Shown: in pieces, positions 19,353 through 63,244 of the stretch | How positions within the stretch are numbered: the first letter of the stretch is position 1 | How the letters are laid out: every line of letters starts with the position of its first letter | The notes under the pieces: model-generated | What the model saw: only the letters and a program-made list of their open reading frames with translations | The model's database searches: none | What the model was told of the DNA's origin: nothing | Virus record (IMG/VR): IMGVR_UViG_3300045988_037736 | Span: 1-64,000 of that record | Length of the DNA: 64,000 bases | From: a virus | Direction: 5' to 3' (one strand) | Translations under genes and position numbers: made by a program

Positions 19353-19767
19353 ATGCACCAAGGATTTTTACTATGAGGATGTACTTATAGCAGCCAAGGG
19401 TGACATAGTTGAAATATCTAATAATAGTCTTGTAAATGCTTCAAGGGATACAACATGTACAAAGTGGGGTAACATACGGGACCATATCACTACAAACTCC
19501 TTTGTAGAAGTTAAAGAGACTAAAGCAGATATGGTCAATCATCCTAATCACTATACATGGCTTAAAGGCAAATGTGGAATTGAAGTCATAGACATTACAA
19601 GATGGCTTGACTTTGACACAGGCAATGCTGTCAAGTATCTGCTCAGAGCAGGACACAAGTCAGAAGAGGGAATAACAGATAGAGAGAAAACCATTCAGGA
19701 CTTGAAGAAGGCTGTCTGGTACATAAATGATAAAATAAAGCAACTAGAAGATGGGAATCAACATTAG
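19339..19767 (+). CDS. hypothetical protein
   Basis: 142-aa ORF that terminates with TAG (19765-19767). 'GNAVKYLLRAGHK' resembles a conserved phage-domain signature, but the family is not confidently recognised. Confidence 0.35.
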   Translation: MSKFRCTKDFYYEDVLIAAKGDIVEISNNSLVNASRDTTCTKWGNIRDHITTNSFVEVKETKADMVNHPNHYTWLKGKCGIEVIDITRWLDFDTGNAVKYLLRAGHKSEEGITDREKTIQDLKKAVWYINDKIKQLEDGNQH

Positions 19768-20092: not shown

Positions 20093-20630
20093 GAAACTTA
20101 GACTGTTAGTCACCTCAGAATGCCCTAACAGGTGTCCTATGTGCTGTAATAATCAATTTGACTTTGACCAGTTAGAAAGGGTCAAGGACTTTGATTATGA
20201 TGAAATCATGATTACAGGAGGTGAGCCTTTGCTATACCCTGATAAGGTAGAGGAACTTGCCAGGTCTATAAAGGTATGCAACTCTATTATATATCCTGAA
20301 GAGAATACTCCTAAAATCTATGTGTACACTTCTGTTGCATCATATTTGGCTTTCAGACAGGTACTTAGAGAGGTGGATGGCATTGTACTTACTCCTCACA
20401 GTGGAAGAGATGTGCAGCAGTTCCTAAAGCTCAATGATGTACTAAAGTTGCACCTGAGATTTAATGAATTACGCCCTTCACTTAGGCTCAACCTCTTTAA
20501 GAACATCAAGAAGATGCTCCCTGAAGATATTGATTTGTCGTTATGGCAAGTTAAAGATATGGAATGGGTCAAGGACTGTCCTGTTCCTAAGGGAGAAGAC
20601 TTTAGAAGATTGCCTACTTTATGGACATAG
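20070..20630 (+). CDS. small radical SAM enzyme (QueE/NrdG-like family)
   Basis: 'SECPNRCPMCC' is a CxxxCxxC motif. 'ITGGEPLL' is the SAM-binding GGE motif. The ATG at 20070 is preferred over the GTG at 20052. It ends with TAG (20628-20630). Confidence 0.5.
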   Translation: MEMMERNRKLRLLVTSECPNRCPMCCNNQFDFDQLERVKDFDYDEIMITGGEPLLYPDKVEELARSIKVCNSIIYPEENTPKIYVYTSVASYLAFRQVLREVDGIVLTPHSGRDVQQFLKLNDVLKLHLRFNELRPSLRLNLFKNIKKMLPEDIDLSLWQVKDMEWVKDCPVPKGEDFRRLPTLWT

Positions 20631-20631
20631 T

Positions 20632-20823
20632 ATGAAGCAATGGGCACACAGAGAGTTTGTTAAGTTAGTCAGACAGAATGGCTTTGAATATGTGAGAAGC
20701 AAAGGAAGTCATGATATATACTATAACAGACAGGGAAGACATATCAGTATTCCTCAAACTCTTGTGGATGTAATTGCTAGAAGACTGATTCGAGAGAATA
20801 ATTTAGTTTCAAAGCGTGAATAG
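20632..20823 (+). CDS. HicA/YcfA-like small protein (63 aa)
   Basis: 'FEYVRSKGSHDIYYNRQGRHISIPQ' matches the HicA dsRBD-like 'KGSH...IP' core. No HicB-like partner is adjacent. Confidence 0.45.
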   Translation: MKQWAHREFVKLVRQNGFEYVRSKGSHDIYYNRQGRHISIPQTLVDVIARRLIRENNLVSKRE

Positions 20824-22233: not shown

Positions 22234-22439
22234 AGAAGTTCATAGTGGAGTCAGTATATCATGTACATATCATAAAGAAAGGACATGAATTTACAACTAC
22301 TGAACATCTTATAGCTGATTCATTCGAGGATGCTGTAGCTATGTGCAGAGAGATGTATCCTGATGGACATCTGGAGAGAGTAGAACTTGCCTTTCAAGCA
22401 AAGAAAAGACCTACAAAAACAATAACTGTTGAAATATGA
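22230..22439 (+). CDS. hypothetical small protein
   Basis: 69-aa ORF. Confidence 0.35.
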   Translation: MKKFIVESVYHVHIIKKGHEFTTTEHLIADSFEDAVAMCREMYPDGHLERVELAFQAKKRPTKTITVEI

Positions 22440-44413: not shown

Positions 44414-47104
44414 TTAGAATGTTAAACCTCTTTTCTTTCTTTTAATCTTACCACCATAAGCTTCCTTTTGAACAGGAGCATAAACTCCATGTCTACTAGC
44501 CCATGTTCTCCATTTTCTATCAACTTTCTCCCTACCAATATCTCCAAGAGAACTGAAGATGTTTGATAAGTTATCAGAGATAGCTTGTTCTCTTGCAAGT
44601 CTAGCTCTTGACCTTATATCAGCAGCAGCCATTGTACCTCTTAATGAGAAGTCTCTAGCTCTTGATAATGCTTCTTGGTTGGCTATATCAGCTTGCAGGA
44701 ATCCTTGGGAGTTCTGAATATTTGTACCTCTATTGAACTCTTCAACTTGATTCCTTTGAGCAAGGTTATATTCTTCAGCCTGTCTTGCTAAAGCACCAAG
44801 CTGGTTTAGATAGTTATTATCAGCAGCAAGAATGCCTGCCATTGCAGTGGCTCTGTTACCTCCTGAAGTATTTAGTAGAGACCTTCTTGAGGCACCTGCC
44901 TCTGCATTCATCTTGTTAATGTAGTAATCCCTATCAAATGGTCTATAAGTTAGGTAGTTACCAATAGGTCTATACCTTACAGGTCTGTAAGCACCTTTAC
45001 CACTGCTTGCTTCAAGTATGGCTGAGACATCACCATCATCAGGCTTTGTAAACAATGAAGTTCCAAGACCTATGGCAGAGCCTAAGATAGGCATATACCT
45101 CATCCAATTATCATAGTTGGGGTATTCACCTCCATTATCAGTAAGGTCAGGGGCTTTCTCATCAGTAGGAGCTACAGCAGGTCTTTCCTTATAGAATAGG
45201 TCTGTATAATCTGTATCTCCTTCACTACTTGTTCCTGTCCTTACATACTGATATGTTCCAGTTGTTGGGTCATAGTCAGGAATAAGTAGGTCTTCCAAAG
45301 GAGTGCCACTAGCATCTGTTCTTCCTGTAAGATACATCCTCTTACCAGTCTTTCTTGGAGCTACTGGAACTGGACTACCTGCAAGGTCTATTCCTGCGTG
45401 CATACCACCCCAACTCTTGTCAGCTGTCCTTGAAGAGAAGATGTCTTTGGTAAGACCCTCTAGAGTAAGAGGCACATATCCTCTTCTTCCTTCATTATAC
45501 CTATTAACTGATTCAACATACCTAGGTAGCCATTGATTTACCTCATCACTTCCCCAGTTATTGATGACATAGTTCCTTCTTGTCATAAATGGAGAGTTAT
45601 CTCCATACATAATATCCCAGTCAATAGAGCCATTTGACTTATAGGGATTGAATCCTTCTTGACCAAAAGTAAGACCTGGAGTAGAGTTATTATAATTGAG
45701 AGTCTGCATCCAGCTACCTGTTTCATACAGGTGACCTCCTCTCGCAAACTTTCTCTCTTCTTTTCTTTCCCTTACCTGCTCCTGTACTTCCATCAACTTA
45801 GACATGCTGTCTATCATTCCTGCCCTACTTATAGGGTCATTAGGCCTCTCTTCAGATTCTTTGCTCATTTGAATAGCAGCATCTGCAAAGGTGAGAGGTT
45901 TTGTTCCTCTTAGTTTATATTTCTTTCTTACTGCTTTTGGAACTCTTAGTCTGTTACTAAATACATAATCATTGAAGATAACTTCTCCCTCTTCTACAAG
46001 GTTAGGAATGCCTTCAGCATCCATTCCCATAGGAACTCCTTCATTAGGGTTTTCTTCATGTGTACCTCCATTACCCACAAGAACAAGTCCTGTATCAAAG
46101 TCAGCTCCATGTGTCATAAGGTCTCCTCCAAAGGCATGATGCCACTTAGCAGCGTTCTAAGCAAATATAGCTCTCTTTCTAGTTAAAGGATTTTTACTAT
46201 GGGTTAATTCCTCTGTAGTCTTTCCTGTTCTCTTCTTAGTAGCATTGAACTTACCTCTATTCTCTGGGTTAATATGTATTCCTCCACCTTCTGCAAAGTA
46301 CAATGGACCTCCATATGAGGCTATGTTTCTAAGTATATCCCTCTTCCTAGTCTATCCTATATTATACTGTGCATTTTCTAAAGAAGAACTAACATATTGC
46401 CTAGCAGTATCAGCTCTTTTGCTCATATCCTAATATAAATCATCTATATCATGACTAAATGCACCCTAACTGCCTAAATCATCATGATTAAAGTATCCAA
46501 CTGTTGGAGCAGTAGCCATCTCCTAAGCTAAAGCATCATAATCAGTAGCACTTGATTTAAACTGTCCAGCCTGGGATATTTGATTATTTAAAGAACTTAT
46601 AAGTTTTTCATTTCTTTCAGAACCAAATAAGTTATTAGTAACTCCTCCAAGTAGCTAACTTGCTCCCATTACTATACCCCCAACCATTGGGTTTACAGAC
46701 ATTAAGGCTCCACCTACAGTTGAGCCTATACTACTAATTCCATTTCCTACTGCACTAGACCTTTTTCCTCCAATTACATTACCTACAATTGAACCAGTTA
46801 AGGCACTTCCTAGTCCTATACCCTGTTTGCCCAATTGAGTAAGTCCTAAGGATGGATTAGTAGTTCCAGATGGTGGAAGAGGAAGGGTTGCTGAAGCAGC
46901 AGTTGGTTGAGTAGTTTTAGTAAGAGCTTGCAGCCCTGTTGATATAGCTTCTCCAGGCATAGTTTCTCTAATACCAGGCATAGAAAAAGCATCATCCATA
47001 CCTGGTATTCCAGCTAGATAATCAGGAGTACCTCCCCATGCAAAATAATTATTCCTCCCAAAAAGGAGTTTATTTGTTCTTTTTTTAATAAGTTTCTTTG
47101 CCAT
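44414..47104 (-). CDS. large structural protein read through 6 in-frame TAG codons (~896 codons)
   Basis: The 149-aa and 567-aa ORFs are in the same frame. The 537-nt spacer 46118-46654 contains TAG at 46157, 46352, 46430, 46466, 46523 and 46655 as its only stops, with no TAA or TGA. The N-terminus is Gly-rich. It ends in TAA. Confidence 0.5.
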
Positions 47105-47167
47105 CTAAATGAATTTTGTATGCAAATGTAGCAAAAATATCCCACTAATACAATAGTATAATACAAT

Positions 47168-47209
47168 TAATTAAAAAGGTGTAAGGTTTTTCTTACACCT
47201 TTTTAATTA
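47168..47209. terminator. long perfect hairpin at the 3' end of the TAG-containing tail-fiber-like gene
   Basis: A 19-bp perfect stem 'aattaattaaaaaggtgtaag/cttacacctttttaattaatt' with a 6-nt loop 'gttttt'. It is AT-rich on both sides and overlaps the TAA stop at 47207-47209. Confidence 0.6.
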
Positions 47210-50200
47210 CATAGAGTACTTAGTAGATACATTATATATTGTCACTCTCTAGTTTTTATGTGAGGCACTCCCTAGAGTTATTTCACTCCATGGATTTCTA
47301 ATCCTTGCCCTACCATAGTGCCTTATAACATCTTTACCATCTTGTGCTACATAAGGAGACCTAGGAATATTAATCCTCCATATATTAAACTTCTTCCTTA
47401 TATCTCTACTATTAGTGAGGTCAGTATAAGCTTTCTAATAGTCATTCTCTGCTTGGATAAAATCAAATGGCTTATCAGAATTATCCTTTTGGTCAAAGTT
47501 CCGTACTTCAGCATTAACTTCCACTGTGTCAAAAATTTTTGTGTAAGGAGAATTACCATTAGATATATAAGTGAAACTAAATGGTTTAAAGTTACCATAG
47601 AACTCATTATATACCCCAGTGAAGTTCTCCCATAGCCTAACTTTATCCTATTCCTATTTTATAGAGTAAAAACCACCTTCAAAGTCAAACATACCTTCAG
47701 TTTCACCATAACTTAAAAAGGAAGTGAACTAGTTAAGCTTAGTTGAGAAACATAAAGCTTCTTCGCCATGAGCTGGAGAGAAATATACATCCCCATTCAT
47801 ATTATCAACAAAGCTTCTTACTCCCATTCCTGTAGGAGTCCACTCTGATAAGTCAACATCATTCTTAACCCACTAACTCATTCCTGAAAGCTCACTTACA
47901 TTTACTAATTCCTAACCATATCTATAAATACTTTTGGACTCGTTATCTATGAAGAATAGACCTGTTGAGGTAGGAATAATAGACCATTTATTAGCACATC
48001 CAATAGTAGAGGATAGAATCCTGAACCCATCTACTCTGTTTGAATTTCCTATCTCAATAGGTACTCCGTCTGTAGGATTGAGCTATACTCTAGAATTAAA
48101 CATAATCTAGCTAATAGATTTTTCCTAGAAGCCAATAAGAGTATCATTGATGGAGGTTAGACATGTTACAGACCCTTTATCAGCAGGAAGGTCTAAGGTA
48201 CTAGCTAAAGTGACATTAGTCCATGGGTCAATTATAGACTAGGGATTTTTCTTTAAGGACCATGCTACCTAGTAAGGAAATGTATCTATTTTATAATAGT
48301 CCTTGTCTAGTGTTCTGTAGTTAAAGAAGTTATCTAACTAAGAGTATACTTCATTTATCTTATAAGAGTCAGGAGTAATGTCGAAGTTGGATAGCTGCCC
48401 TCTTTTAGTATCGTATCTTCCATCAAGATTAATATGTGACTCAAGCATAAATGAACCTATTTCTACTATCTAATTAGTATCATCATCTGCAAAAGGATAA
48501 GTCTTTACACAATCATATCTTGTACACCATGTATCCCCATAGGCATAAGGAATCGTAATTATCTTATGTGGAGTTGATACAAGAGGAACTGACTCACTAC
48601 TTGGAACCCATAAGTTATTTTTGATAGCTTCATCCGATTTACCTCCAAACCTAGTGTCTGGGTCAACCCACTATGTTAATTCAGCTATAGGTAATGTGGG
48701 GGAATAATCTTTATCCTCTTCAAGTAACTACAGAGTGCTATTCTGGATGGTAAACGTATTATCTGTATTATCTGTAGATGGCTCTGAATACATTTTATAA
48801 GATGTAATACCAACTATATTTCCGAGAGATACCTTTAAGTTTAATAATACCTAATCCCCAAGATACTAAAAGTTATCATGACCATCCTGTAAGTTTTCAA
48901 AAGGACCCCATTTTATTGGCCCCGCATTCTGAAGAACTCCTACCCACTCACCATTTACATAGTGATGATAGATTATACATCCTTTCTTCACTAAAACAGT
49001 CACTTTAGTTCCTGAGTTTTGTACCTGCCAATACCCTACTTCTCCTATCTTTACCCTTTTAACCAATACACGCTTAGCTATGGGTCCAATGTAAGCCATT
49101 ACAATCTGATAGGTTCCTAGAGCAGTCACACTTGTATCGTCAACATCTAGTACTAAGTTCCCCTCTTTGTTATAAGTCCCATAAAAGGTTTTTGAGCCTA
49201 TAAATGAAAGGATAGGATATGAAGTACTGGTAGAAGTATTATTCTCCCATCCAGAGGGGGTATACTATGAAGTTATAGTCTCACCAGTAACAGAAGTGTA
49301 TGGTAGTACTGGAATAACCTTAGGGTTATCCTCATCATATAAAGAGAATACTAAGTGAGGAGATGATTTATACTTCATTCTTACTGACTCCCCAGAAGTA
49401 GGTACATTAGTAGGGGATACTTGTGAAATACTATCATCAGTACCAGCATAAATAGGATAAGCTGATGTGGCTGATACAATATCATCTACATTTCCAAAGT
49501 ATAGTACATCCTAGTCTAAATGTGGAACACGAACAGTTAAGCCTGTAACCTCTTTAGAAGAGAATAACTTAGGAGTTGTAATTTTAATATTGTGGTTATT
49601 AGAGTTAAAAAAAGTTGACTTACTTTCAAAATACTTTAAATTGGAAATAATCTTCCATTTTAGTATAGCTGTTCTATTTCCGGATTTCTCTATAATCTCA
49701 GGAGACCTGACAATATCATTATTTAGTGAGCCTGTTCTATGCCAAGGATAAACTAAATATTTAACAATACCTGTCTTATCATCATCTAAAAAATCCCCTC
49801 TTAGTATTTTATCTTCAAAACAACATGATGATACAAATCCTCCATTAACAGTAGTATTAGGAGTAGTACAGTTCACTGGAAATCCTACAGGATGATGTAT
49901 AAATCCTCCAGCCTGAGAACTAGCTTTAGAGGTCACTGCTAAATCTATATCTCCATACAATCCATGTAGGCTAGCGGCTCCAACAATATTTAGCCTTGCT
50001 CCTTCTAATTGAGTAGTATTTATATAGGACCCATACTCAATTTCTGGGGAATGTAAAGTAACTAAGTTACTATCAACAGCAAAAGTTGAATAATGAGACT
50101 TTATACCATCAGAGGGAGAAATAATTTCCTATATTGACTTATTGGAATCTCCTGGCAGAGATGACTATATTTCAGCACTTCTATTACCTCCACTGAAAAG

Positions 50201-51676
50201 TGTATAATTATGTTTATACTAAATAGTCGACCCCTAATCTATCGAGGTAGAGGTTTCTTTTGGCTTTCCATCTACATATACAGGAGATGGCCTAAAGAAC
50301 CAAGATGACATTGCATATGGGTTATTCATGTGCCTTCCTCTCACACTGTAGACAGTAGGATTTAAAACTCCCTAACATATAATATTTCTCTCCGCTGGCT
50401 TAGGGAAAACAACACAAGTTCTAGCCCTTCTTACTCCAGCTTTTAATAATGAGGCAGTTGCATTAGGGAATAACTAAAGTTCCTTAGTATCCACCCCGTC
50501 AGTAGTGCCCCAAAAATATGAATTATTTAACTCTACATCAAGAAAACCATCACCATCACCATCACTATTCCTTATGACTTTGTTTAATGGAATAGGTTCT
50601 GACCATTCTCCAGTCTTAAACTAAAATTGAACTCCTAATCTATATGTTTCTCCTGCCTTAAAATGACCAGGCTTAAACTATGGTAGATAAGGATAGTATT
50701 TATTTATACCCTAATTATCATAAGTATCTTCGGCTAAAAAACAATCTGTTAACCCTAAAGAGTCCCCATTTTCAGCCTCTTCCTATTGAAGTAATGTAGT
50801 TAGTTCTTTAGTATTTTTCTGAACAGTAATGTTTCCATAAAACATCACTCCTTCTTTGCTAGTGATAGTTCCAGCTAATATTGTTTGTCCCCCAGTATAT
50901 AATAGTTTAGCAGGGTCTTCTATTGAACCAGTAAGACCAGTATCTGTATATTCAATTGTTTTTACCAGCTAATCCTCAGAACCAAACACATCATACCAGT
51001 ATTCTCCTTCAGCACTTTCCTCCTAGCAATCTTTTAAGTCTAAGTCAGCTACAATCTTAACTGTAGGCTATGCGTCTAGTGAAGTTCTATGTATAGAATA
51101 AACCCTTATATAATCAAAGTTATCAACATTTTCTACTTTAATTGTGAAAGAAGTTATAACCTTCTCTTCTGGATTACCAGCTCTATCATAATTCCTTATA
51201 TACTATATGGGAGATACATAGAATATGTTACTTTCTTGCCCATACTTATTAAAGTATGTAAGAGCATATTGAATTACTCCAGGAGAAAATTCTCCATGAC
51301 TGGAACTTCTACCTACCAGTACTCTTTCTTTTAACTATAGGTTCTATACAAAATCAAATGGAGACTCAGCTCTGTATATCCAATTTCCTTTTTCATACCA
51401 CTTTTCTAGATTTTCTATAACTTCCTAGGAAACTCCCTCACTTTTCTATGGATTTGAGAAATTAACTCCGTCTACTATAACTTTACTAGCTATATCTTCA
51501 GGAAGTTTCAACTCTGGGGCAGTTATATTAATAACTCTAGGCTGGTTAATTCCATCTGTCCAATACAACTTATTCACAAGAACTGACTCACTATCCCCTA
51601 ATATTTCTAGAGGGTGATTAGCATCAAGACCTAGCACTCCTTCAAATAGAGTAACTTTAATCCACTCCCCTTTATC
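47207..51676 (-). CDS. very large tail-fiber/tailspike-like protein encoded with 39 in-frame TAG codons
   Basis: A single frame is open over ~4.4 kb (1477 codons). The only in-frame stops are 39 TAG, and it ends at TAA 47207-47209. It joins the track fragments 51446..51637, 49511..49960 and 48866..49129. The start is unresolved, because two in-frame TGAs lie upstream at 51677 and 51713. Confidence 0.5.
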
Positions 51677-51712
51677 TTCATGGAGTCTATATATTCTAGA
51701 TACTTCCTGAGT

Positions 51713-52024
51713 GTCATTCTAACTTACAGTAAATACTACTAAGTATCTATTAAGCACACAATGTCCTACGTACTACCCATCAAAAACAACACCAGTGTCC
51801 GTATTTCCCTTCTCATTAGTGATAGAAAACCCAGTATCACTATCCCTATTAGTAAGTCTCACATTTAAAGCATCCCATAAAAAAGACTCATCTTGTCTTG
51901 ATGGGTGAACATCTCTCCTTAGGCCTTTAAATATATGATTATCTGAATACATCATGTTAATATAATTAATGAAGTTTGATATACTCCTTAGAACCAAGAG
52001 TTTTAAACCCTTTGCTATGCTCAT
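51713..52024 (-). CDS. small hypothetical ORF, boundaries uncertain
   Basis: The 83-aa track ORF ends with TAG at 51773. It would extend 20 codons to TGA at 51713 if the TAG is read through. It overlaps the upstream gene's end. Confidence 0.2.
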
Positions 52025-52664
52025 TAGTCCTGGAGATTAAAGTATTCCAAGAATTAGTGAAAGATTGGAGTTGGTCAATAGAGGGCCTAACAAGGTCAGA
52101 CTGAGCTTGACCCACTGCCCAAGCATATTGTTGTTCTGCGTGTTGCAGAACCTGTTGAGTTATCCTACCAAGCTCAAACTGAACTGTAAAATGTTTTACC
52201 TTTATAAATAGCTCAAGTGCTTCCTCAAAAGAACCATTCTCTGGTATGAGAGGGAATCCTTCTTCATCTGTCGAGAAAGCTCTATAAGCTACTTCTATAG
52301 TTCCTTCCTTCATAGAAGTAAAAATACAACTTCCCTGTAGTTTATAGGTAAGGTCATTATCTCTTGTCTTATCAGGACTCATATGAAATGAATCAGTAGA
52401 GTATCTGAATACTTCATGAAGTACTCCATTACAGTTATGACCAACTGCTCTTACCTGTATCATTTCATAGAAGTCACAAGGTAGCTTACCTCTATAATTC
52501 TCTATCTCAACCTTCTCTGTTTTCTCAAGGAATATTGAGGGCATACCTACCTTCTGTATGAACCTGACAGCATAATTGACTGCCCTTTCTAAAGATAAAT
52601 CTTGTAGCAAGGGATTATCCATCAGGTTATCAAGAACTTGTCTTATGCTTATATATTTTGTCAT
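51966..52664 (-). CDS. hypothetical protein
   Basis: 232-aa ORF ending in TAA. Confidence 0.4.
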   Translation of the reverse strand: MTKYISIRQVLDNLMDNPLLQDLSLERAVNYAVRFIQKVGMPSIFLEKTEKVEIENYRGKLPCDFYEMIQVRAVGHNCNGVLHEVFRYSTDSFHMSPDKTRDNDLTYKLQGSCIFTSMKEGTIEVAYRAFSTDEEGFPLIPENGSFEEALELFIKVKHFTVQFELGRITQQVLQHAEQQYAWAVGQAQSDLVRPSIDQLQSFTNSWNTLISRTNEHSKGFKTLGSKEYIKLH

Positions 52665-53185
52665 ATCTTAAAAGCATCAAAGTTACCACTTTTAATTCTT
52701 TGCTTCAATCTCCTTTTAAGGTCTCTGTTCACTACAAATTCATAGAGGGATTTATTGTTGTAGTCTGCATCAATCCTGTTATAGTAGACCTTGAAGATTT
52801 CTTTTTCCTCCATTTTAATGAGTGTTCTTTCCTTATAGGCTTCCTCATCTTCTGACCATAGTTTAAGTGTTCTATCCCAGTCAATAGGAAGATTAGTCTT
52901 TACCTTTCCCTTCTCAACTGAGATTCTTACATCATACTTCCTTATCTCTATAGTACCCATTCCACATGGTAACTTTATATCATGGCCATGTATAAGTGAC
53001 TCGGCAAGAAGATTATTTATCCTTCTTATAATAGAGTAGAACTGATGTTCTGTAATAGGCTGTCCTATATCAAACCATTTGTTCTTTCTGATATACTTGT
53101 AGGCATCATATACTCCATATGAGTTATTCACTCTATAGACTCTTGACTCACTTACTTTAAGTACCTTCTTTCTGAACTCCTCCAT
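52661..53185 (-). CDS. hypothetical basic protein
   Basis: 174-aa ORF ending in TGA, with overlapping coupling to its neighbours. Confidence 0.35.
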   Translation of the reverse strand: MEEFRKKVLKVSESRVYRVNNSYGVYDAYKYIRKNKWFDIGQPITEHQFYSIIRRINNLLAESLIHGHDIKLPCGMGTIEIRKYDVRISVEKGKVKTNLPIDWDRTLKLWSEDEEAYKERTLIKMEEKEIFKVYYNRIDADYNNKSLYEFVVNRDLKRRLKQRIKSGNFDAFKI

Positions 53186-53864
53186 ATTTGAACTTGTATC
53201 CTCTGCAAAGCTTACCAGTCCTGCAACACTTACTTAACCATGATTTATCTACTCCTAGAGCTAAGGCTGCTTCTGTAGCTGATTTGTACACAGCTAGTAC
53301 TTCTCCCTCCCTATCAAGCATTTGTACAATCTTAGACATTGGTGAGTTCTCAGATATTTTCAACCTTTCACACATAGGTCTTTTCCTACCAAGATTTACT
53401 TGTCTAAGACATTCCTTTTGTTTCTCACTCATTTTCCATCCAGAACCTCTAGATGATTTTCCTCTATGGGCTATACTCAACTTCTTCTTATGAGATTCTG
53501 TAAGAGTACATCCCCTTCTCTTATTGGATTTTTCATAAGGAATCTTAATTCCTTTATTCCATGGGACATTCCCTGTGCATCCCTCCCCTCCATCTGTAAT
53601 ATTGAGACTAATCCCTAAATTCTTGTAATAGGCTATATATTGTTTCTCTCTATTTATAGCGTCTTGTTCTGTCATTCCAGTATAAAGTATTTCATGAGTT
53701 ATATTGTCCCATCCATACTTTATTATACTATTCTTAAATGGAGAGTTCTTACAATTAAAATACCCTTTACCATTATTCCATCTATGAAGAGGATTTTGGC
53801 TAGTTATGCCTATATATACTTTGCCAGATGGAGTAGTATGTTTATACAAACAATATTCTTTCAT
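53157..53864 (-). CDS. GIY-YIG homing endonuclease with NUMOD3 repeats
   Basis: The GIY-YIG core is 'CLYKHTTPSGKVYIGIT...RWNNG'. Basic NUMOD3-like repeats are 'KKKLSIAHRGKSS' and 'KQKECLRQVNLGRKRP'. Confidence 0.65.
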   Translation of the reverse strand: MKEYCLYKHTTPSGKVYIGITSQNPLHRWNNGKGYFNCKNSPFKNSIIKYGWDNITHEILYTGMTEQDAINREKQYIAYYKNLGISLNITDGGEGCTGNVPWNKGIKIPYEKSNKRRGCTLTESHKKKLSIAHRGKSSRGSGWKMSEKQKECLRQVNLGRKRPMCERLKISENSPMSKIVQMLDREGEVLAVYKSATEAALALGVDKSWLSKCCRTGKLCRGYKFKYGGVQKEGT

Positions 53865-54617: not shown

Positions 54618-55286
54618 TTAACTACTATATTTCCATATAAACCCGCCAGAGGTTTTGTGCTCCCCATTTAGGCATTTATACAAGGAAGCTTCAGCTATAC
54701 CAGTACATAAACTAGCTTCCTTAACTGAAGGAAAGGACTGTATCAACTCTTCTTCTAAAGAAAACTGTAGTACGCCCTTTATGGTTTTAGCCTTTATTAT
54801 CTTATCAGACCAAGTACAGGGTCTTCCTTTCAGAGACTTACTGATATTATTTCTCCATTCTTCTGTAAGCTTTACTCCCCTACGAACTAATGATAGCTTC
54901 TTTTTAACCTCATCAGTTCTCTTCTTTCCTCTGTTAGCTATAGAAATTCTATTTTTGGACTCTGTAGAAAATTTGTAGCCAACGGTGGAGTCCCCTCCTA
55001 TTGTGCAATTATATCCATGCACATAAGAGTTATATAGTCCTATGTAATATACTTCCAGCTTGTCAAGTTCTTCTTTAGCCTGCTTTTTAGAACTAAATAT
55101 TCTCTTTTCTAAAACTTCATATTTGAAGGACTCCAAACCATATTTAATTCTAGCCCTATTTATTTTAATTCCAGCATATGGCCCGACAGTGTTCCAATGC
55201 TCCCTTCGTATTTTCTCGTTAGTAGTCTGACCTATGTAAGATTTTCCACTTGGAGAAACATATCTATATATAACACCTTCAACCAT
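54618..55286 (-). CDS. GIY-YIG homing endonuclease with NUMOD3 repeats
   Basis: The GIY-YIG core is 'GVIYRYVSPSGKSYIGQTTNEKIRREHW'. Repeats are 'KNRISIANRGKKRT', 'KKKLSLVRRGVKLT' and 'RNNISKSLKGR'. Confidence 0.65.
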   Translation of the reverse strand: MVEGVIYRYVSPSGKSYIGQTTNEKIRREHWNTVGPYAGIKINRARIKYGLESFKYEVLEKRIFSSKKQAKEELDKLEVYYIGLYNSYVHGYNCTIGGDSTVGYKFSTESKNRISIANRGKKRTDEVKKKLSLVRRGVKLTEEWRNNISKSLKGRPCTWSDKIIKAKTIKGVLQFSLEEELIQSFPSVKEASLCTGIAEASLYKCLNGEHKTSGGFIWKYSS

Positions 55287-56107: not shown

Positions 56108-56146
56108 TGTATAAAATAAAAAAGGGAGGCTTTTGACCTCCCTTAT
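56108..56146 (-). terminator. intrinsic terminator downstream of the 346-aa structural gene
   Basis: A GC stem 'gggagg/cctccc' with the loop 'cttttga' sits immediately after the TAA at 56149. On the minus-strand RNA it is followed by 'UUUUUUAUUUU'. Confidence 0.55.
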
Positions 56147-56148
56147 GA

Positions 56149-57189
56149 TTAGGCTAGTTCTGCAACCTGTACCTTAGAGGCTTCAGCAAACTGACCAATG
56201 AGCTTGTTTAGCTGTGCCTTGTCAGCACATACAATAGTGATGTCCTTCTCTGACCTTTGTGGTCCTTCATTGGGACCTACATAAGCATAGTGGATTTCAA
56301 GAACATTGTATGCAGTGTCAGGGTCAACAAGATACTTGGTTGGAATACTGTTAGGCCATCCAATATTTCTGTATTGGTCACCTCTTTCACCCATGCAGAA
56401 GTACTCAAGGTCTGCAATTATTCTACCATTGTTTCTTACAGTAGTGGAGTCACTTACTGTTACTGCACCCCACTTAACTTCTTCACCATCAAAGGTTACT
56501 GTAGTAGGAGTAACTGTGAAGTTAACTTTAGTCTGTTCCTTGATACCAAGAGTCCAGTCCTGCTCTACTTCTGTGATAGTAACACCATCAGCATAATCTT
56601 CAGCTACTGTGATAGCTGCACCAGTAGTGTCAATAAGAGTTTCCTCACCATTAACATCTGTCTTTACTCTACCTACAACCTTTCCAGCTATAGTGAACTC
56701 AAGCATCTTGCCAAGTTCTCTGCTGAAATTCTTGTAGAGAGAAGCTGCAAGCTTAGTATAGAACTGGGCAGGAGTCATAGTTCTTGTAGCATGAACAGCA
56801 CCATACTTGAAGTAGGGTTCCCCATCTGACATTCCTACATAAGGATTGATACAGATTCTAAGGATATAGTCCTGACCTCCAATAGGATTGCCTTCATTGA
56901 CACTAGCATCAAGCTTAACTACAGCCTGCTTAAGTGCATACTTCTGAGTAGCAGCCTCTGCACTTACAGCTTTGGCATAGAGAATATTGTCTATGTTGAT
57001 GAGGTCACTCCTCATAAGGTTATCAGCCCCCTTATACTGGAAGTATAAGTTCTTACCTTCAGCATCAGCCTTGAGAGCAATGGTACCAGCAGCATCTGAC
57101 TCACTCACCTTACCATCTGTCTTCTTTGCAGTACCTTGAACTGCTGTGACTACATAAAGTTGTCTTACTTGGTTAGTTGAAAATACCAT
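56149..57189 (-). CDS. abundant structural protein candidate (346 aa)
   Basis: It is followed by its own terminator. No internal TAG. Ends in TAA. Confidence 0.4.
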   Translation of the reverse strand: MVFSTNQVRQLYVVTAVQGTAKKTDGKVSESDAAGTIALKADAEGKNLYFQYKGADNLMRSDLINIDNILYAKAVSAEAATQKYALKQAVVKLDASVNEGNPIGGQDYILRICINPYVGMSDGEPYFKYGAVHATRTMTPAQFYTKLAASLYKNFSRELGKMLEFTIAGKVVGRVKTDVNGEETLIDTTGAAITVAEDYADGVTITEVEQDWTLGIKEQTKVNFTVTPTTVTFDGEEVKWGAVTVSDSTTVRNNGRIIADLEYFCMGERGDQYRNIGWPNSIPTKYLVDPDTAYNVLEIHYAYVGPNEGPQRSEKDITIVCADKAQLNKLIGQFAEASKVQVAELA

Positions 57190-57208
57190 AATTTATTTTA
57201 TTAAGTTT

Positions 57209-57904
57209 TTACTTACCTGCACTGGCTCTACTCTTCAAGGCAAGGCTAACTGCCATTTCTAGTATCACTCTATGTATTGCAGGGTTTAATTTACATTCAG
57301 TTGCTTTTGTTAATCCATTGATAGAAAGACCTTCAGGTAAATCAATAAGGATGATAGGTTCTGGCTTTGACAGGTATCTAATCTGGTACTCATCTATGTT
57401 GAATGCTGAGATAAGTTCAACTGTATATCCTTCAATATCAAGCCTTAATACTCTCCTCTTGTTGGGCATTCTGAATGGATTCCTTTTGGTTTTATAGAGT
57501 TCATCTTGAGTGACAGGAACTACTTCCATTATAGAACCTTTAGCACAACCTAACTTAACATCTTGAGATGTTACAGCCTCATAGGTTATAAACCAGGTAT
57601 CTTCAGGAATATTGAAGAAGTATGAGTCTCTTGTAAGACCTTCCCCTTCCACCTTGTCAGTGGTGGAGTAGGTCTTTACAAGACTGCTCAAATATCTTCT
57701 GAGTTCCTCTGTCTTCTCGAATGAATCTCCTGTAAGGTTTCCATTGTAGAGTGATATGACTATACTCTCTTGTGCCTTTGTAAGGAACATTGACTTTTCA
57801 TATTCATCAAACTCCAATGGCATAGAGTCTACACCAAATGGCTTGATGATGGAGTTGCTGTTGACTAGATTGTCAAATTCATTTGAGAACTCTTCGTTTG
57901 TCAT
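57209..57904 (-). CDS. hypothetical structural protein; TAG-free tandem paralogue
   Basis: 231 aa. Its N-terminal 'EFSNEFD...DEYEKSMFLTKAQ' is shared with the adjacent TAG-containing gene. Confidence 0.45.
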   Translation of the reverse strand: MTNEEFSNEFDNLVNSNSIIKPFGVDSMPLEFDEYEKSMFLTKAQESIVISLYNGNLTGDSFEKTEELRRYLSSLVKTYSTTDKVEGEGLTRDSYFFNIPEDTWFITYEAVTSQDVKLGCAKGSIMEVVPVTQDELYKTKRNPFRMPNKRRVLRLDIEGYTVELISAFNIDEYQIRYLSKPEPIILIDLPEGLSINGLTKATECKLNPAIHRVILEMAVSLALKSRASAGK

Positions 57905-57906
57905 AA

Positions 57907-58680
57907 TTATCTACTTTGAGTTACAATACCCATATTAGTCTGTGATGTCTGACCAAGAGCAACCTGTGAAGTAAGGTCTCCAATATAAGCAGCCTTAGCT
58001 AGCTCACAAGCTCTTTGAATAATCTCTGGAAATAGTATTGGGTCAAGCTCACAACATTCCTCACTACTCTCACCTCCTATAGTAAGACCGTCAAATGTAC
58101 TTAGTCTAATAGCTTTAGGACGTCTAACAAATCTATAGGTATAACTAATTAAGGAATCCTAATATCCTAAAATTAATTCAACTTTCTTTCTATTACTGTC
58201 AGAAATAAGCAATCTCCAAGCTTGGTTTTTTAGAGGATATTTGTAAGGTTTGCTAGTGAGTCTATTATACTCCAAGTAACTAATAGGGATAACAGTTAAT
58301 CCAGTTTCGTTATTACCTCTCTAAACTGTAACATACTCGTTGATAAACATGAATATATCATCTTGAAGGATGATACTTTTACTGCTTTTTCTATTGTCAA
58401 AGTGTGCATCTAAAAAAGAGTCTGCATCTGCTATTGTACGGTCTCTCATGAGCATAGAGAAATCAATCTACCTTATCTCACTTCCGTCAAAACCTTCTTG
58501 AGACTTATTAGTTTTTGGACTAAAATAAGCTTTTACTACTTCATCTTGAGCCTTAGTTAGAAATACAGACTTCTCATATTCATCCAAACCAGGAGCCTGA
58601 TTACTTGTAATGCTGTTGTAAATTATATCAAACTCATTACTAAATTCCTAATTTCTTATTCTTCTTTCTTCCGCAGTCAT
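57907..58680 (-). CDS. TAG-containing paralogue of the preceding gene (257 codons, 4 in-frame TAG)
   Basis: The frame is open from ATG 58678 to TAA 57907. Its only stops are TAG at 58648, 58468, 58321 and 58159. It translates to 'MTAEERRIRN*EFSNEFD...LDEYEKSVFLTKAQ', homologous to 57209..57904. Confidence 0.5.
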
Positions 58681-58719
58681 AAGGTTTTCAATTTGCGACA
58701 TGTAACTTAAAGATTAAAG

Positions 58720-59115
58720 TTACTGCCTTAACTTAGCCTCAAGAGAAAATTTAATTTCTTGATGCTTGGGATTATTAAGATACTTGGCTGCTATGTTGAG
58801 TGTAGGTTCTTCATTAGCTTCACATAATGGGGCATTATCACTCCTTAGATATAGATAATTTCCTCTATTAGAGATAAGACCTGCTTCAATAGCTTTCCTA
58901 ATAAGGACTTTGGTAGGAAGCATTGGGTCTGTAATAGCTCTAAGGAAGATTTTACTATCTGCTTGGATAAGGTCATTAGCCTTGGTCTGTAAGAACTCAA
59001 GCTTAGATGTAGAAGCAAGGGGTCTACCATCAATAGTTTCAATGATGACTCTCAGTGTATCTGCATCTTCCTCTATCTTACCAAACTCCTTATAGCACTT
59101 CATTGTAGTACTCAT
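58720..59115 (-). CDS. hypothetical protein
   Basis: 131 aa, ending in TAA. It is in the same frame as the upstream ORF, separated by one TAG and 24 open codons. Confidence 0.35.
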   Translation of the reverse strand: MSTTMKCYKEFGKIEEDADTLRVIIETIDGRPLASTSKLEFLQTKANDLIQADSKIFLRAITDPMLPTKVLIRKAIEAGLISNRGNYLYLRSDNAPLCEANEEPTLNIAAKYLNNPKHQEIKFSLEAKLRQ

Positions 59116-59187
59116 GTTAACCTTAGCATTCTTAGTTTCATCACCTTCAGAAATGATTACAAACTGATAGCTTGCCTTGGGAGCATC

Positions 59188-59715
59188 CTATAGTGCCTCA
59201 AGTGAGGGAGCAATATAGTTCTTATTAGCTAGAAGAATCTTATATCTGATATAATCTTCTGGGTCTGCCAGATTAAAATAATTATCTTGCTTGGTAAGTC
59301 TTACCCTTGAGATACCCTTATCATTTGTGTCATCCCAGAAGTTATCTGTTTTTCTATAGATAGATAGAGCATTTACCTCAAGTCTCATGATATGTTCAAG
59401 GAAAGCCTTTTCATCATCTGTCAGTACATTCACGTACATACCTGAGCTTAACCTAGGTACTGTAAATGTCTTGGTAGCATTCTCGGCCATACCTCCATAG
59501 AGTATATGTTTGGGATTAGTAATCATACCACCAAGCTTGGGTATATGTCTCACAATGATTCTTTCATTTCTTAAGCAGTTTATTAGCTGCTTTGGTGCTC
59601 TTCTTGCGGGCTGTTCCTCAACTATAGGAACAACTTTTGGCACCTCTTGTAGAGGCAACTCATCAGATAGGTCAATCTGAGCTACATCTATTTCTTCCAT
59701 ATTTTTCTTTGCCAT
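59188..59715 (-). CDS. hypothetical protein
   Basis: 175 aa, preceded by AAGGAG. Its TAG stop at 59188-59190 may be read through into 58720..59115. Confidence 0.35.
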   Translation of the reverse strand: MAKKNMEEIDVAQIDLSDELPLQEVPKVVPIVEEQPARRAPKQLINCLRNERIIVRHIPKLGGMITNPKHILYGGMAENATKTFTVPRLSSGMYVNVLTDDEKAFLEHIMRLEVNALSIYRKTDNFWDDTNDKGISRVRLTKQDNYFNLADPEDYIRYKILLANKNYIAPSLEAL

Positions 59716-59740
59716 ATCTTCTCCTTATGAAGTTAAAGAA

Positions 59741-59768
59741 AGGGGAAGAGAGAATTGCTCTCTCCCCC
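59741..59768 (-). terminator. stem-loop terminator downstream of the putative major capsid gene
   Basis: 'ggggaagagag-aattg-ctctctcccc' forms a 10-bp stem with one bulge, located directly after the TAA at 59778. Confidence 0.5.
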
Positions 59769-59777
59769 TTATTTTGT

Positions 59778-61292
59778 TTAGCCCTGTAGTATAGCAGGGA
59801 TAAGTGACATTGTTCTAGTTGGGTCAAGAACACAAATACCAAGAGTAGCCATCCTATGGAAGGTAGCTGAATCTTCATCATATGACATGAATTGATTACC
59901 AAGCTGACCTGTGAAAGGATTTCTCAATCCCCATTGATAACCTCTGAACTCCTCTTGTCCCTTAATCTTACACTTGAAGATATTGGGCTGGTCCATAGTA
60001 CCAATGTACATGATGTCATACCTGTAAGAGAAGGCAGGTCCACCATCAGGGTGTTGTACCTTGTTTCTTATTGGGTCATCATAGTATGGGTCAACATCAA
60101 GCTTCACTCTTACACCATTAGGTGCCCTGTACTCTACAAACTGGAAGCCAGCTGCAAGAGCATTAGTATGAAGATTGCTTTGTGTCTTCTCAACAACATT
60201 CAGAGCATCACCATTAAGTGTGAACTGAGTCCATCCACTTACAGTCTGAAGTACAGCCTTATGGAATTGTATAGCACCTCTTTCACCTGTCTTAATGACG
60301 AAGTACCTATCACCAAAGTCAAGCTTGGATGCAGACAGTTCATATAGGGCATCTTCAAGAAGTTTCAGGCTGAACTTGTTGTAGTACTGAGTATTAGCTA
60401 CCTCCATCTGTTCAAACAGACCAGCACCCATCTTAATAACTTCACCTGACTTACCAAAGTTCAGATACTCTCCATTGTTGTTTCTGTTGCTTCTACCAAA
60501 GGCAAGAATGTTATTCTTGTATTCAGAGAATGTCTGTTCAACTTCCCAGTCAACATAGTGCATCCACATGTTAACTACAGACTTAGTGTAACCTGTAGGA
60601 GTTTCCTTTGTTACAGGAATACCACATGCAAGTTTCTTGTTGAGCATATTGCCAGGCACCTTATGTTGGATTCTGATGGTAGACCATTCATTTCTCATAG
60701 ATACAGGAGAAGTGAATCTAACATCACCAACTTTCCTTGAAAGTGCTCTTTCTACAGGAGCATATTCATAGCTGAATCTTTCTCCTGGAAGGAGTCTTTC
60801 AGCAGGAATACCTTGGGTAATACCACCCATTAGCTCTACCTTGTAAACTGCATTAGTACCTTCCATTCTCGGATTACCAAGAATCCTCATGGGATATACT
60901 TCATTCAGATTACCTACAATTACTTCACCATCAGCAAACCAGTCCTCAGGGAAGACAAGCTCAAACACAGCTGTACCAACACCTACATTGGCAGTAGTTG
61001 CTGCGGTTACTACATTGCCATTCTCATCTCTTGCCTCAAGCAGAGGAATATTCCTTCTGGTAGAGCCAATTACATCCCAGTAATATTCTGAGTCATCTTC
61101 AAACTCTTTTGTAGGGAACTGGCTTAGGAAGGTATCAAGAGTCTTACCTCTGTACCAAGCTAATAGCTGTACCATTAGGTTAGTTGCCTTCTGTGGAGCA
61201 AGCTGGAAGATTTGACCAAGGTGGTTGTCCTTTGTCAGACCTTTCCAGTGAGAAAAGCCAATCATTTGGAACTTATTCAGTTTTCCAGCCAT
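59778..61292 (-). CDS. putative major capsid protein (504 aa)
   Basis: The size matches crAss-like major capsid proteins. It is immediately downstream of the acidic scaffold-like gene and followed by a terminator. Assignment is by size and synteny only. Confidence 0.4.
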   Translation of the reverse strand: MAGKLNKFQMIGFSHWKGLTKDNHLGQIFQLAPQKATNLMVQLLAWYRGKTLDTFLSQFPTKEFEDDSEYYWDVIGSTRRNIPLLEARDENGNVVTAATTANVGVGTAVFELVFPEDWFADGEVIVGNLNEVYPMRILGNPRMEGTNAVYKVELMGGITQGIPAERLLPGERFSYEYAPVERALSRKVGDVRFTSPVSMRNEWSTIRIQHKVPGNMLNKKLACGIPVTKETPTGYTKSVVNMWMHYVDWEVEQTFSEYKNNILAFGRSNRNNNGEYLNFGKSGEVIKMGAGLFEQMEVANTQYYNKFSLKLLEDALYELSASKLDFGDRYFVIKTGERGAIQFHKAVLQTVSGWTQFTLNGDALNVVEKTQSNLHTNALAAGFQFVEYRAPNGVRVKLDVDPYYDDPIRNKVQHPDGGPAFSYRYDIMYIGTMDQPNIFKCKIKGQEEFRGYQWGLRNPFTGQLGNQFMSYDEDSATFHRMATLGICVLDPTRTMSLIPAILQG

Positions 61293-61320: not shown

Positions 61321-61557
61321 TTAAGCATCAATGGTCCAGCCCTTACCTATGAAGGATTCTGAATCAACTCCACTTGCATAGTTAAGATTACCATCTGAGG
61401 TTCTAGCAGTATTGTTTAGAGTATTTTCCAGTTCTCTGAACCCTCTCTTTACTTCTTTTCTTACTTTACCTTTTACAAGTCCATCAAGATTCTTGAAGCC
61501 ATCTGTAAGTGTGAATATAAGACCAAGGTTCTTTAAGAACTCTGTCCTATGTTCCAT
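61321..61557 (-). CDS. hypothetical small protein
   Basis: 78 aa. It is in the same frame as the scaffold-like gene, 3 codons after that gene's TAG. Confidence 0.3.
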   Translation of the reverse strand: MEHRTEFLKNLGLIFTLTDGFKNLDGLVKGKVRKEVKRGFRELENTLNNTARTSDGNLNYASGVDSESFIGKGWTIDA

Positions 61558-61566
61558 TTCATATCT

Positions 61567-62475
61567 CTAAATGGCAGTAAGCATTTCTCCTGTCTCAGGG
61601 TCTTTATATACAGGCTTGGCAAGATTGTCATATATTCTTTGTCTTGTTGCCTTGTCAACTTCTACATCACCAAAGACTTTCTTCTCAGTGAGAATAGATG
61701 TTCTCAGCTTCTCAGCCTGTTCCTTCCTCTTTGCTACTTCTGCCTCTTCCTCTTTCTTGGCATCTTCAATTACTTCCTCATATTTGGACTTGAAGTATTC
61801 CTTGTTGCTTTTCAAAGCCTCTCTTGCATCATCTACATCAGTACCTCCATTAAGGGATTTCTGAACTTCTCTTGAAGCTCTTTCCTTACTGTAACCCCTA
61901 TTAATGAAGTCCTGATATATTAGCTGTTTCCTCAGCTTCTCTCCTTCATCAGTCTCAGCTGCAATAGAGTCATCCTTGATACTGTCAAGATAGTTGATGG
62001 CACCTTCATACTGCCTGATAGTATCAGGTTCCACTCCAACATTGAGAGCCTCATCAATCCTCTTCTGTCTTTCATCAAGACCAGCTTTAATCTGTTGCTC
62101 TACAAGCTCTCTTAAGTCTTCAGGAGTTTCTACTTTAGAAATGGCTTCTTCATCAAGGTCTGGGAAGATACCTTCCTCTGCAAAGGCTTTGGCAATGGAA
62201 GAGTAAATTTTGGGAGAAGTACTGCCTTTGTCAGGGTCAGTATCTTCCTTTTCCTCTGTATCTCCACTACCTACGCTCTCTGGTTTGTCTGTAAACAAGG
62301 AGTCTACATTAACCTCAGTAGTTTCTTTTTCTTTCTTTTCTTTGCCCTCTACGAGCTCATCTTCTTTTTCTTTACCTGTATCATCAGGTGCAGGCTCCTG
62401 TGATGTGTCATCATCTATGAACAGGTTCTCTACCTCAGAGCCTGTCAGAATGTTATCTAGTGATAGTTCTTCCAT
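61567..62475 (-). CDS. scaffold-like highly acidic/charged protein (302 aa)
   Basis: It is Glu/Lys/Asp-rich with predicted coiled coil ('EKEDELVEGKEKKEKETTEV...'). It sits directly upstream of the putative major capsid gene. It terminates with TAG (61567-61569). Confidence 0.35.
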   Translation of the reverse strand: MEELSLDNILTGSEVENLFIDDDTSQEPAPDDTGKEKEDELVEGKEKKEKETTEVNVDSLFTDKPESVGSGDTEEKEDTDPDKGSTSPKIYSSIAKAFAEEGIFPDLDEEAISKVETPEDLRELVEQQIKAGLDERQKRIDEALNVGVEPDTIRQYEGAINYLDSIKDDSIAAETDEGEKLRKQLIYQDFINRGYSKERASREVQKSLNGGTDVDDAREALKSNKEYFKSKYEEVIEDAKKEEEAEVAKRKEQAEKLRTSILTEKKVFGDVEVDKATRQRIYDNLAKPVYKDPETGEMLTAI

Positions 62476-62610: not shown

Positions 62611-62862
62611 TTATAGCTCAGCTATATTATAGAGTGCTTCATTGAGTATCTGCATAGCTGTTTCACCACTAAGTATTGCAGCTTCCTCAGAGTAAGGATT
62701 AATGTCAAGAGCCTCACATATGTGCATTTCAAGATGATTCTTTTCATGCTCAAAGGTGTTAACAAATTCTCCTACACTCGAAGCCTTATGTATGACTATA
62801 AGTGAGAACTTCTTATAGAAGCTTGAGTATATGAAACCTGTATCAAGTTCCGAGTTCATCAA
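62611..62862 (-). CDS. hypothetical small protein
   Basis: 83-aa ORF ending in TAA. Confidence 0.3.
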   Translation of the reverse strand: MMNSELDTGFIYSSFYKKFSLIVIHKASSVGEFVNTFEHEKNHLEMHICEALDINPYSEEAAILSGETAMQILNEALYNIAEL

Positions 62863-63013
62863 GTTCCTTTCCAGTTTCTCAAAGGTTTCTTTGTCAGGCT
62901 GAAGCTCTTTAAGTTCAGTGACTATCTCAGTCTTCTATTTCTCATCTACAGTGTAATATATTACTACATCCCAGTCATACTTCCTTATCTTGAACTGCTG
63001 CCTGAGACCCATA

Positions 63014-63244
63014 TCATCTATATTTTTCTTTGAGTTTTTCAATCTTTTCCTCAAAGCCTTCTCTATAGCTTCCTCTATAAAGACCACCTCTCCTTTCATC
63101 AAAGCCTGCTTCTCTCATAGCTTTCTTATAGCCATGTTCACAACCTTCCTTGAAAGCCTTTTCAAGCATATAGTCTTCATCCTCCCTCCTAGAGCCTCTG
63201 CCACCTCTTTCATCTTCATCCATTATTTGATAAATTCTTCCCAT
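63014..63244 (-). CDS. hypothetical small charged protein
   Basis: 76 aa, rich in Arg, Glu and Gly. Confidence 0.25.
   Translation of the reverse strand: MGRIYQIMDEDERGGRGSRREDEDYMLEKAFKEGCEHGYKKAMREAGFDERRGGLYRGSYREGFEEKIEKLKEKYR

Follow-up and report, generated by a model that had tools for sequence, protein, structure and literature searches.

How does a phage genome come to carry, side by side, two related genes of which one is crossed by four in-frame TAG codons and the other by none? The pair lies on the minus strand of a 64,000-nucleotide (nt) stretch of viral DNA, positions 1 to 64,000 of the IMG/VR record IMGVR_UViG_3300045988_037736 (the window), and a sequence-only reading had taken it for a duplicated structural gene in two codon dialects. 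The explanation that we favour, and consider likely, is that TAG is decoded as glutamine (Gln) in the late genes of this crAss-like phage, that the interrupted frame is an intact gene for ring protein 4/5 (R4) beside an older paralogue, the gene for ring protein 3 (R3), and that their contrast in TAG content comes from cassette exchange in a mosaic genome. The two genes and the four TAGs are:

57907..58680, minus strand: ring protein 4/5 gene (R4), orthologue of PhiCrAss001 gp34, with four sense TAGs (PF25710, 7qoj_E, AlphaFold model).
58648..58650, minus strand: R4 sense TAG 1, codon 11; the homologue column varies (L/N/Q/E/S) and the TAG is kept in a near-identical genome.
58468..58470, minus strand: R4 sense TAG 2, codon 71; Q in 120/120 homologues, and CAG in the genomes L142, L145, L012 and L010.
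58321..58323, minus strand: R4 sense TAG 3, codon 120; the homologue column varies (T/N/K/S/D/E).
58159..58161, minus strand: R4 sense TAG 4, codon 174; N in 100/120 homologues.
57209..57904, minus strand: ring protein 3 gene (R3), orthologue of PhiCrAss001 gp35 (PF25710, 1.6e-94; 7qoj_D, 6.9e-77).

The R4 frame runs from an ATG at 58680-58678 to a TAA at 57909-57907 and comprises 257 sense codons, with TAG as the sole kind of in-frame stop (n=4, at codons 11, 71, 120 and 174), just as the sequence-only reading had described it. An alternative in-frame ATG at 58701 would add seven codons to give a protein of 264 amino acids (aa), and this start corresponds to the one used by a database protein, P0001, that is 98% identical to R4. 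An example of a predicted R4 peptide across TAG positions is ...SEIRQIDFSMLMR. Given the base composition of the window, a frame of 257 codons without TAA or TGA has a probability of ~4e-6, which, together with the matches to PF25710 and 7qoj_E and the recurrence of the four-TAG R4 and zero-TAG R3 pair in two independent assemblies from other samples, excludes a chance origin. In all, R4 with the same four TAGs occurs in three further contigs, each an independent assembly with differences elsewhere. The stretch 57907-58680 is a real, intact ring 4/5 gene with TAG as Gln.

The two genes are clearly related, as had been proposed: with TAG translated as Q, their products align over 237 columns at 29% identity (BLASTP, E 3e-19). 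The Pfam family PF25710, 'phage tail ring protein 3/4', matches both R4 (4.6e-50, 170.4 bits) and R3 (1.6e-94, 315.9 bits) against a curated cut-off of 27 bits. Searches of the PDB tell the two apart, with R4 matching 7qoj_E, 'Ring protein 4/5 gp34', at 1e-60 and gp35 only at 4.6e-16, whereas R3 (231 aa, zero TAG and just four Gln codons) matches 7qoj_D, 'Ring protein 3 gp35', at 6.9e-77 and gp34 only at 3.6e-22. Sequence identity to the PhiCrAss001 proteins is 48% for R4 and 56% for R3. Pfam and the PDB were used for ring gene identity since neither R4 nor R3 matched in PHROGs, and the GenBank phage collection held no annotated close relative, the closest match reaching ~76% nucleotide identity (in the major capsid protein gene only) and R4 at most 50% amino-acid identity. 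An AlphaFold model of P0001, with TAG as Q and a mean predicted local distance difference test score of 71.8, shows helices at residues 10-59 and 225-262 with strands between them; these conserved alpha-helices and beta-sandwich form the two-domain fold expected for the gp34 subgroup of PF25710. The best PDB matches of the model are chains E and F of 7qoj (template modelling scores of 0.67-0.74), followed by 7qoj_D. In a group of R4 homologues of 324 aa (P0004-P0013), an insertion of ~60-70 aa lies in the central region that is hypervariable here.

The setting of the pair agrees with these assignments, and the crAss-like context named by the sequence-only reading is correct. The late genes are ordered gp31-like, major capsid protein (MCP), gp33-like, R4/5, R3, auxiliary capsid protein (AuxCP), tail hub A, ring 2, ring 1, muzzle, cargo 1 and cargo 2, which is the order of PhiCrAss001. 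The run gp31-MCP-gp33-gp34-gp35-gp36 is common to the window, crAss001 and cr85_1, and the position of R4 and R3 between the gp33-like and AuxCP genes recurs in crAss001, cr85_1 and more than 15 metagenomic relatives. The structure of PhiCrAss001 contains paralogous ring proteins, ring 3 being gp35 and rings 4 and 5 both gp34, with R3 and R4 30.6% identical and ring 5 docking the six-fold muzzle; dodecameric rings 4 and 5 docking a muzzle hexamer have been described for this phage only (Bayfield et al. 2023, PMC10172136). GenBank crAss-like genomes typically contain two matches per record (97 places in 54 records), fitting a tandem pair. Because the two genes are orthologues of PhiCrAss001 gp34 and gp35 (PDB 7QOJ), with the same order, adjacency, PF25710 membership and ~30% R3-R4 identity there, and because two matches are typical of GenBank relatives, R4 and R3 are an old, conserved pair of distinct structural genes and not a recent duplicate; to speak of one gene duplicated in two codon dialects misframes two ancient paralogues. 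PhiCrAss001 differs in using the standard code, with no TAG in gp34 or gp35, whereas the gp34 orthologue of the window contains four sense TAGs and diverges in its central region.

The TAGs of R4 belong to a larger set of 53 in-frame TAGs in six late genes with full-length homologues (4 in R4, 40 in the muzzle gene, 6 in cargo-1 and three singles), of which the other five are:

47207..52024, minus strand: muzzle protein gene, 1605 aa, 40 sense TAGs (65% of Gln-type codons; PF25731, 2e-239).
44414..47104, minus strand: cargo protein 1 gene, 6 sense TAGs, all in codons 150-316 (PF25725).
58720..59715, minus strand: gp33-like gene, 331 aa, one sense TAG at 59188-59190; the gene agrees with crAss001 gp33 in synteny and length.
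61321..62475, minus strand: gp31-like gene, one sense TAG at 61567-61569; the codon is CAA in the near-identical genome L141 and CAG in the other relatives.
62611..63099, minus strand: 162-aa late gene, one sense TAG at 62935-62937; the codon is CAG in L015, L017, L142 and L144.

At R4 codon 71, all 120 homologues carry Q. The single TAGs of the gp33-like, gp31-like and 162-aa genes are CAG (in one case CAA) at the same codon in close relatives, the gp33-like TAG being CAG in L142, L144 and L145; of the 40 TAGs in the muzzle gene, 12-13 stand opposite Q in each of the standard-code relatives, far above any other residue; and none of 18 late genes ends in TAG, all closing on TAA or TGA. These comparisons show that TAG is read as Gln in the late genes, and they bear out the suggestion that it serves as a sense codon here. 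The plus-strand early genes of the window yielded no convincing sense TAG. The lone TAGs of the gp31-like and 162-aa genes stand in sequence that otherwise resembles that of standard-code sister phages, and they look like an ongoing gain of the CAG-to-TAG type; the gp31-like one appears polymorphic within the species (TAG in the window, CAA in L141).

No tRNA is found in the 64-kb window. A tRNA with the anticodon CUA is present at L061:1298-1370 in the near-identical genome IMGVR_UViG_3300045988_064014 (98.8 kb, and 96-100% identical to the window in TAG-bearing genes), where it scores 55 bits against the Rfam tRNA model; its nearest phage tRNA is a tRNA-Gln(UUG), with the acceptor stem and D arm nearly identical. 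Together with a small downstream open reading frame (ORF), it forms a ~400-nt insertion (L061:1190-1700) between a conserved promoter-like block, which holds a Bacteroides-type -7 motif (TAnnTTTG), and a tRNA-Thr. This insertion is not in the tRNA arrays of four related genomes, and an exact-pattern scan for the suppressor tRNA returned the same contig only.

To place the TAGs in an evolutionary frame, the window can be compared with standard-code sisters, four IMG/VR contigs (...031323, ...025205, ...042591 and ...049815) whose orthologous late genes, as far as compared, lack in-frame TAGs and whose tRNA arrays, as far as examined, lack a CUA tRNA. Identity between sisters and window is 98-99% for MCP, 92-94% for gp33, 89-92% for ring 1 and 77-87% for R3. 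Along the late module, nucleotide identity to L142, L144 and L145 stays at ~75-96%, except in two homing-endonuclease insertions and in two tracts, which are listed here with the capsid gene:

~57961..58755, minus strand: tract A, a divergent (replaced) segment from the last ~10 gp33-like codons through R4 codon ~240, with all four R4 TAGs.
~46200..52050, minus strand: tract B, a second replaced segment comprising the muzzle and the 5' third of cargo-1 (~320 codons), with 46 TAGs; identity collapses from ~52100 to ~46300.
59778..61292, minus strand: MCP gene, no TAG (PF23898, 2.5e-220), 98-99% identical to the standard-code sisters.

A codon-guided scan gave a nucleotide identity of 47-82% to L142, L144 and L145 within tract A, compared with 80-97% in most 20-codon blocks of gp33 outside it (with a few dips elsewhere); right after the tract, identity is 88-94% in R4 codons 241-257, the last 17 of the gene, and 80-98% at the start of R3. 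The putative recombination boundary would thus lie ~50 nt before the end of R4, so that R3 keeps the state of the backbone. At tract B, the muzzle is only 35-42% identical to the sisters, and cargo-1 is 37-52% identical over its N-terminal 320 aa and 81-90% over the C-terminal part; the C-terminal two-thirds of cargo-1 are sister-like and TAG-free, placing a breakpoint inside the gene.

Tracts A and B together hold 50 of the 53 sense TAGs of the late module. Per codon, this amounts to 4/194 in tract A, 46/1926 in tract B and 3/6912 in the late backbone (Fisher p of 2e-28 overall and 2e-5 for tract A alone), figures that use a conservative 194-codon tract A from 300-nt windows, whereas the finer scan puts its end at codon ~240. 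The share of TAG among Gln-type codons is 44% in tract A, 60% in tract B and 1% in the backbone, and the guanine-plus-cytosine (GC) content is 0.32, 0.35 and 0.40, respectively. At the backbone rate, zero TAG in R3 is the expected outcome (P 0.90), while four in R4 would have a probability of 6e-6.

Neighbour-joining trees gave a clade of the window and its sisters for MCP, gp33 and R3 (bootstrap 74, 91 and 100), but not for R4, so that the phylogenies of the two ring genes do part, with R3 beside the standard-code sisters. In the neighbour-joining tree of the muzzle, the window clusters with the TAG-recoded phages L153-155 (bootstrap 78), which also supplied the nearest muzzle homologues, at 50-53% identity, in a search of 5.8 billion proteins. 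A third unalignable, TAG-dense tract is found in the near-identical genome, where four tail-fibre-like genes of low GC (L061:12300-16400) carry 29 sense TAGs; the fibre genes at this locus in the sisters (2105 aa and 1412 aa) are unrelated and contain no TAG. The junctions of R4 (four TAGs) with R3 (zero) and of the muzzle (40 TAGs) with cargo-1 recur in independent assemblies of other samples, indicating that the mosaic is not an assembly artefact.

These observations fit a scheme in which the window would come from a crAss-like phage of the Steigviridae (beta-group), with TAG decoded as Gln in its late genes. The R4 TAGs would be read by a phage-encoded Gln-like suppressor tRNA (CUA) located outside the window, presumably charged by the host glutaminyl-tRNA synthetase and expressed late. 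Most of the late module would be a backbone common to the standard-code sisters and essentially TAG-free, into which a few host-proximal tail cassettes would have been exchanged with lineages that already used TAG commonly for Gln; the cassettes concerned would be, in the window, nearly the whole of R4/5 and the muzzle with the start of cargo-1, with the tail-fibre genes of the near-identical genome as a third. The sequence-only reading had considered that a second copy was acquired from a recoded phage, and part of this survives, in that R4 is a divergent tract with a TAG density and low GC like those of the other replaced tracts; what it would represent is the replacement of an orthologous cassette and not the arrival of a second copy.

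A more specific version, which might equally well prove right or wrong, makes this phage a recent code convert, in which a standard-code backbone took up the ~400-nt suppressor-tRNA insertion and TAG-rich distal-tail cassettes from recoded phages. Those cassettes would comprise the fibres, the muzzle-docking ring 4/5, the muzzle and the cargo-1 N-terminus, and the gain of TAG from CAG in the backbone would have just begun, with three cases so far and one of them polymorphic within the species.

The R4 and muzzle alleles of five close genomes fall into the same three classes, (window, L141), (L142, L145) and (L144). With three classes only, this is suggestive of R4/5 and the muzzle being exchanged as co-adapted partners, which fits the contact between ring 5 and the muzzle. 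Within the species, the window R3 is 84% identical to that of L141, which is otherwise 97-100% identical, and the cargo-1 C-terminus and cargo-2 are ~30% identical; these differences indicate that mosaicism continues within the species.

Several results weigh against cassette exchange as the full account. For R4, the search of 5.8 billion proteins returned nothing between 98% and 68% identity and the scan of IMG/VR the same species only, so that the nearest R4 outside the species, from the recoded L010 and L012, is 67-68% identical; the R4 tree is poorly resolved (bootstrap 36). For the muzzle, the nearest match in the same protein search reached 53%. Both genes are hypervariable in all sister genomes, so that fast local evolution contributes and is not fully separable from exchange. 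The fraction of identical codons at conserved residues, 44-59% in tract A against 60-85% in the backbone, is a moderate contrast, and TAG positions shared with recoded relatives (~10 observed, ~9.7 expected) show no excess, a chance level at which inherited TAGs are not demonstrated. Gln decoding is known at the level of sequence alone, and the CUA tRNA lies in the near-identical genome, not in the window. The direction is ambiguous as well, since recoded cassettes may have entered a standard-code backbone, or standard-code alleles may have replaced those of a recoded phage; the direction that we prefer is suggested mainly by the tRNA insertion and the derived state of the three backbone TAGs.

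The second of these directions would have a fully TAG-recoded ancestor overwritten by TAG-free standard-code alleles, leaving R4, the muzzle and the fibres as remnants. The pattern of tracts and backbone is symmetrical in this respect, and as recoded genes need a resident suppressor, transfer from standard-code to recoded phages would be the unconstrained direction. We nevertheless think this course of events unlikely, because the suppressor tRNA sits in a discrete ~400-nt insertion, in no other array examined, within an array otherwise shared with the standard-code sisters, because the early region is sister-like too (95% amino-acid identity, for the single early gene compared), and because, in the backbone, each of the three TAGs represents a derived C-to-T change in sequence of the sister type.

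Those same three backbone TAGs did arise by point mutation, and this lends some plausibility to an account without any exchange, in which R4 and the muzzle, hypervariable among all sisters, simply evolve fastest and gained their TAGs in situ after the suppressor was acquired; published time series likewise report TAG-bearing genes mutating faster and gaining TAGs by point mutation (10.1101/2023.08.07.552389). Such an account is improbable given how abruptly the sequence changes: where genes end, an alignment at ~85-95% nucleotide identity is lost within tens of bases, and yet MCP is still 98-99% identical. Identical-codon use at conserved residues drops in the tracts, the muzzle clusters with a different, recoded clade, and the sisters show three discrete allele classes instead of a gradient.

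Selection on the individual genes, with TAGs kept in R4 and excluded from R3 to delay or throttle R4 translation, would be in keeping with a model, set out by Borges et al. (10.1101/2021.08.26.457843), of in-frame recoded stops that gate late and lysis genes, and TAG 1 of R4, at codon 11, would block translation early. The genes are, however, 2 nt apart, R3 starting 2 nt past the R4 TAA, in one terminator-bounded block:

56122..59770, minus strand: block of the gp33-like, R4, R3 and AuxCP genes, bounded by terminator-like hairpins with T-runs, one past MCP (59770-59740) and one past AuxCP (56144-56122).
56149..57189, minus strand: auxiliary capsid protein gene (AuxCP, gp36-like), no TAG (PF25650, 6.4e-111).

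The genes of this block lie 2-40 nt apart, and it is probably a single transcription unit; a scan for sigma-70 promoters gave no signal over the shuffled background. R3, moreover, has only four Gln codons, for which the backbone rate predicts zero TAG, and the TAG counts of R4 and R3 in other recoded relatives are 0/4 (L010), 2/3 (L012), 8/3, 4/3 and 3/2 (L153-155), 3/5 (L025) and 10/4 (L027), so that with counts reversed or TAGs in both genes elsewhere there is no consistent R4-specific recoding. Since gp34 forms two rings and gp35 one (PMC10172136), throttling of R4 would also run against stoichiometry. We therefore hold gene-specific selection to be very improbable, and with it the divergence after duplication under different translational timing that had been offered as the other origin of the pair. 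On a 125-kb crAss-like contig (L006:2998-5296), three tandem ring 3/4 paralogues carry 3, 9 and 8 sense TAGs, and a capsid gene has TAGs too. That R4 is a pseudogene or the product of a chimeric metagenome assembly, as its four breaks under the standard code might suggest, is hardly credible for a frame that runs full-length against gp34 without TAA, TGA or frameshift (P ~4e-6) and that recurs with the same four TAGs in three other independent contigs, with the 40-TAG muzzle likewise reproduced.

Some further features of the window lie outside this argument. Two homing-endonuclease-like ORFs stand between structural genes on the minus strand, at 54618-55286 and 53157-53864, and neither is in the standard-code sisters; the former matches homing-endonuclease families of PHROGs, one with a GIY-YIG motif, and is 38% identical to that of the near-identical genome. 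On the plus strand, a ThyX of 610 aa (22436-24265) matches Thy1 only in residues 460-605 and LAGLIDADG in residues 268-299, and probably contains an intein. Three plus-strand early or middle ORFs seem to end in TAG (19765-19767, 20628-20630 and 20821-20823) and have an in-frame TAA 1-10 codons further on, which could be a back-up stop in an amber-suppressor phage.

The locus is an instance of the known recoding of late genes in crAss-like phages, and three studies (PMC7886860; 10.1101/2021.08.26.457843; PMC9523058) already describe TAG-to-Gln recoding of late genes in the beta-group. As in the window, the in-frame TAGs of the phages described there keep to the late structural module, with TAG opposite Q and standard-code relatives at short evolutionary distance; a tRNA (CUA) encoded by the phage lineage, here seen in the near-identical genome, is a further parallel. 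The window differs in its sparse backbone recoding (3 TAGs in 6912 codons) and in the concentration of TAGs in cassettes that are unalignable to the sisters. Close pairs of recoded and standard relatives are also described by Borges et al. (10.1101/2021.08.26.457843) for Agate phages of more than 90% average nucleotide identity, one member standard and the other TGA-recoded, with recoded stops in structural genes and not in the replication module, as here; they concern another phage group and codon, and their stops are said to 'have arisen' across structural and lysis genes, whereas those of the window are almost all in replaced segments. The papers on TAG recoding have recoded stops accumulating in late genes, and the term 'recombination' has 0 occurrences in the preprint; its section on standard-code relatives and the passages covered in the other papers make no mention of recombination or of sense-TAG density linked to recombination tracts.

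The best account of the contrast between R4 and R3 is an exchange of cassettes in a mosaic genome, and not duplication or gene-specific timing. A practical consequence is that gene calling under the standard code misses or splits ring 4/5, gp33-like, gp31-like, muzzle and cargo-1 (the gp33-like gene, for example, is cut into ORFs of 175 aa and 131 aa), so that translation with TAG as Gln is needed. For the biology, the window and its sisters offer a natural before-and-after pair for a change of code, with capsid proteins 98-99% identical, the suppressor-tRNA cassette present or absent and the TAGs confined to swapped host-interaction cassettes. The link between TAG density and recombination tracts, together with the closeness of the standard-code sisters, makes the locus a model of moderate interest for the spread of a code change, and makes testable the hypothesis that recoding can spread by module recombination and that code differences shape which exchanges are viable. 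If the phage is indeed a recent convert, alternative genetic codes would spread horizontally among phages as gene cassettes, not by gradual point mutation; recombination would in that case pass through a one-way gate opened by a suppressor tRNA, and the density of sense TAGs could serve to trace the ancestry of genome segments.

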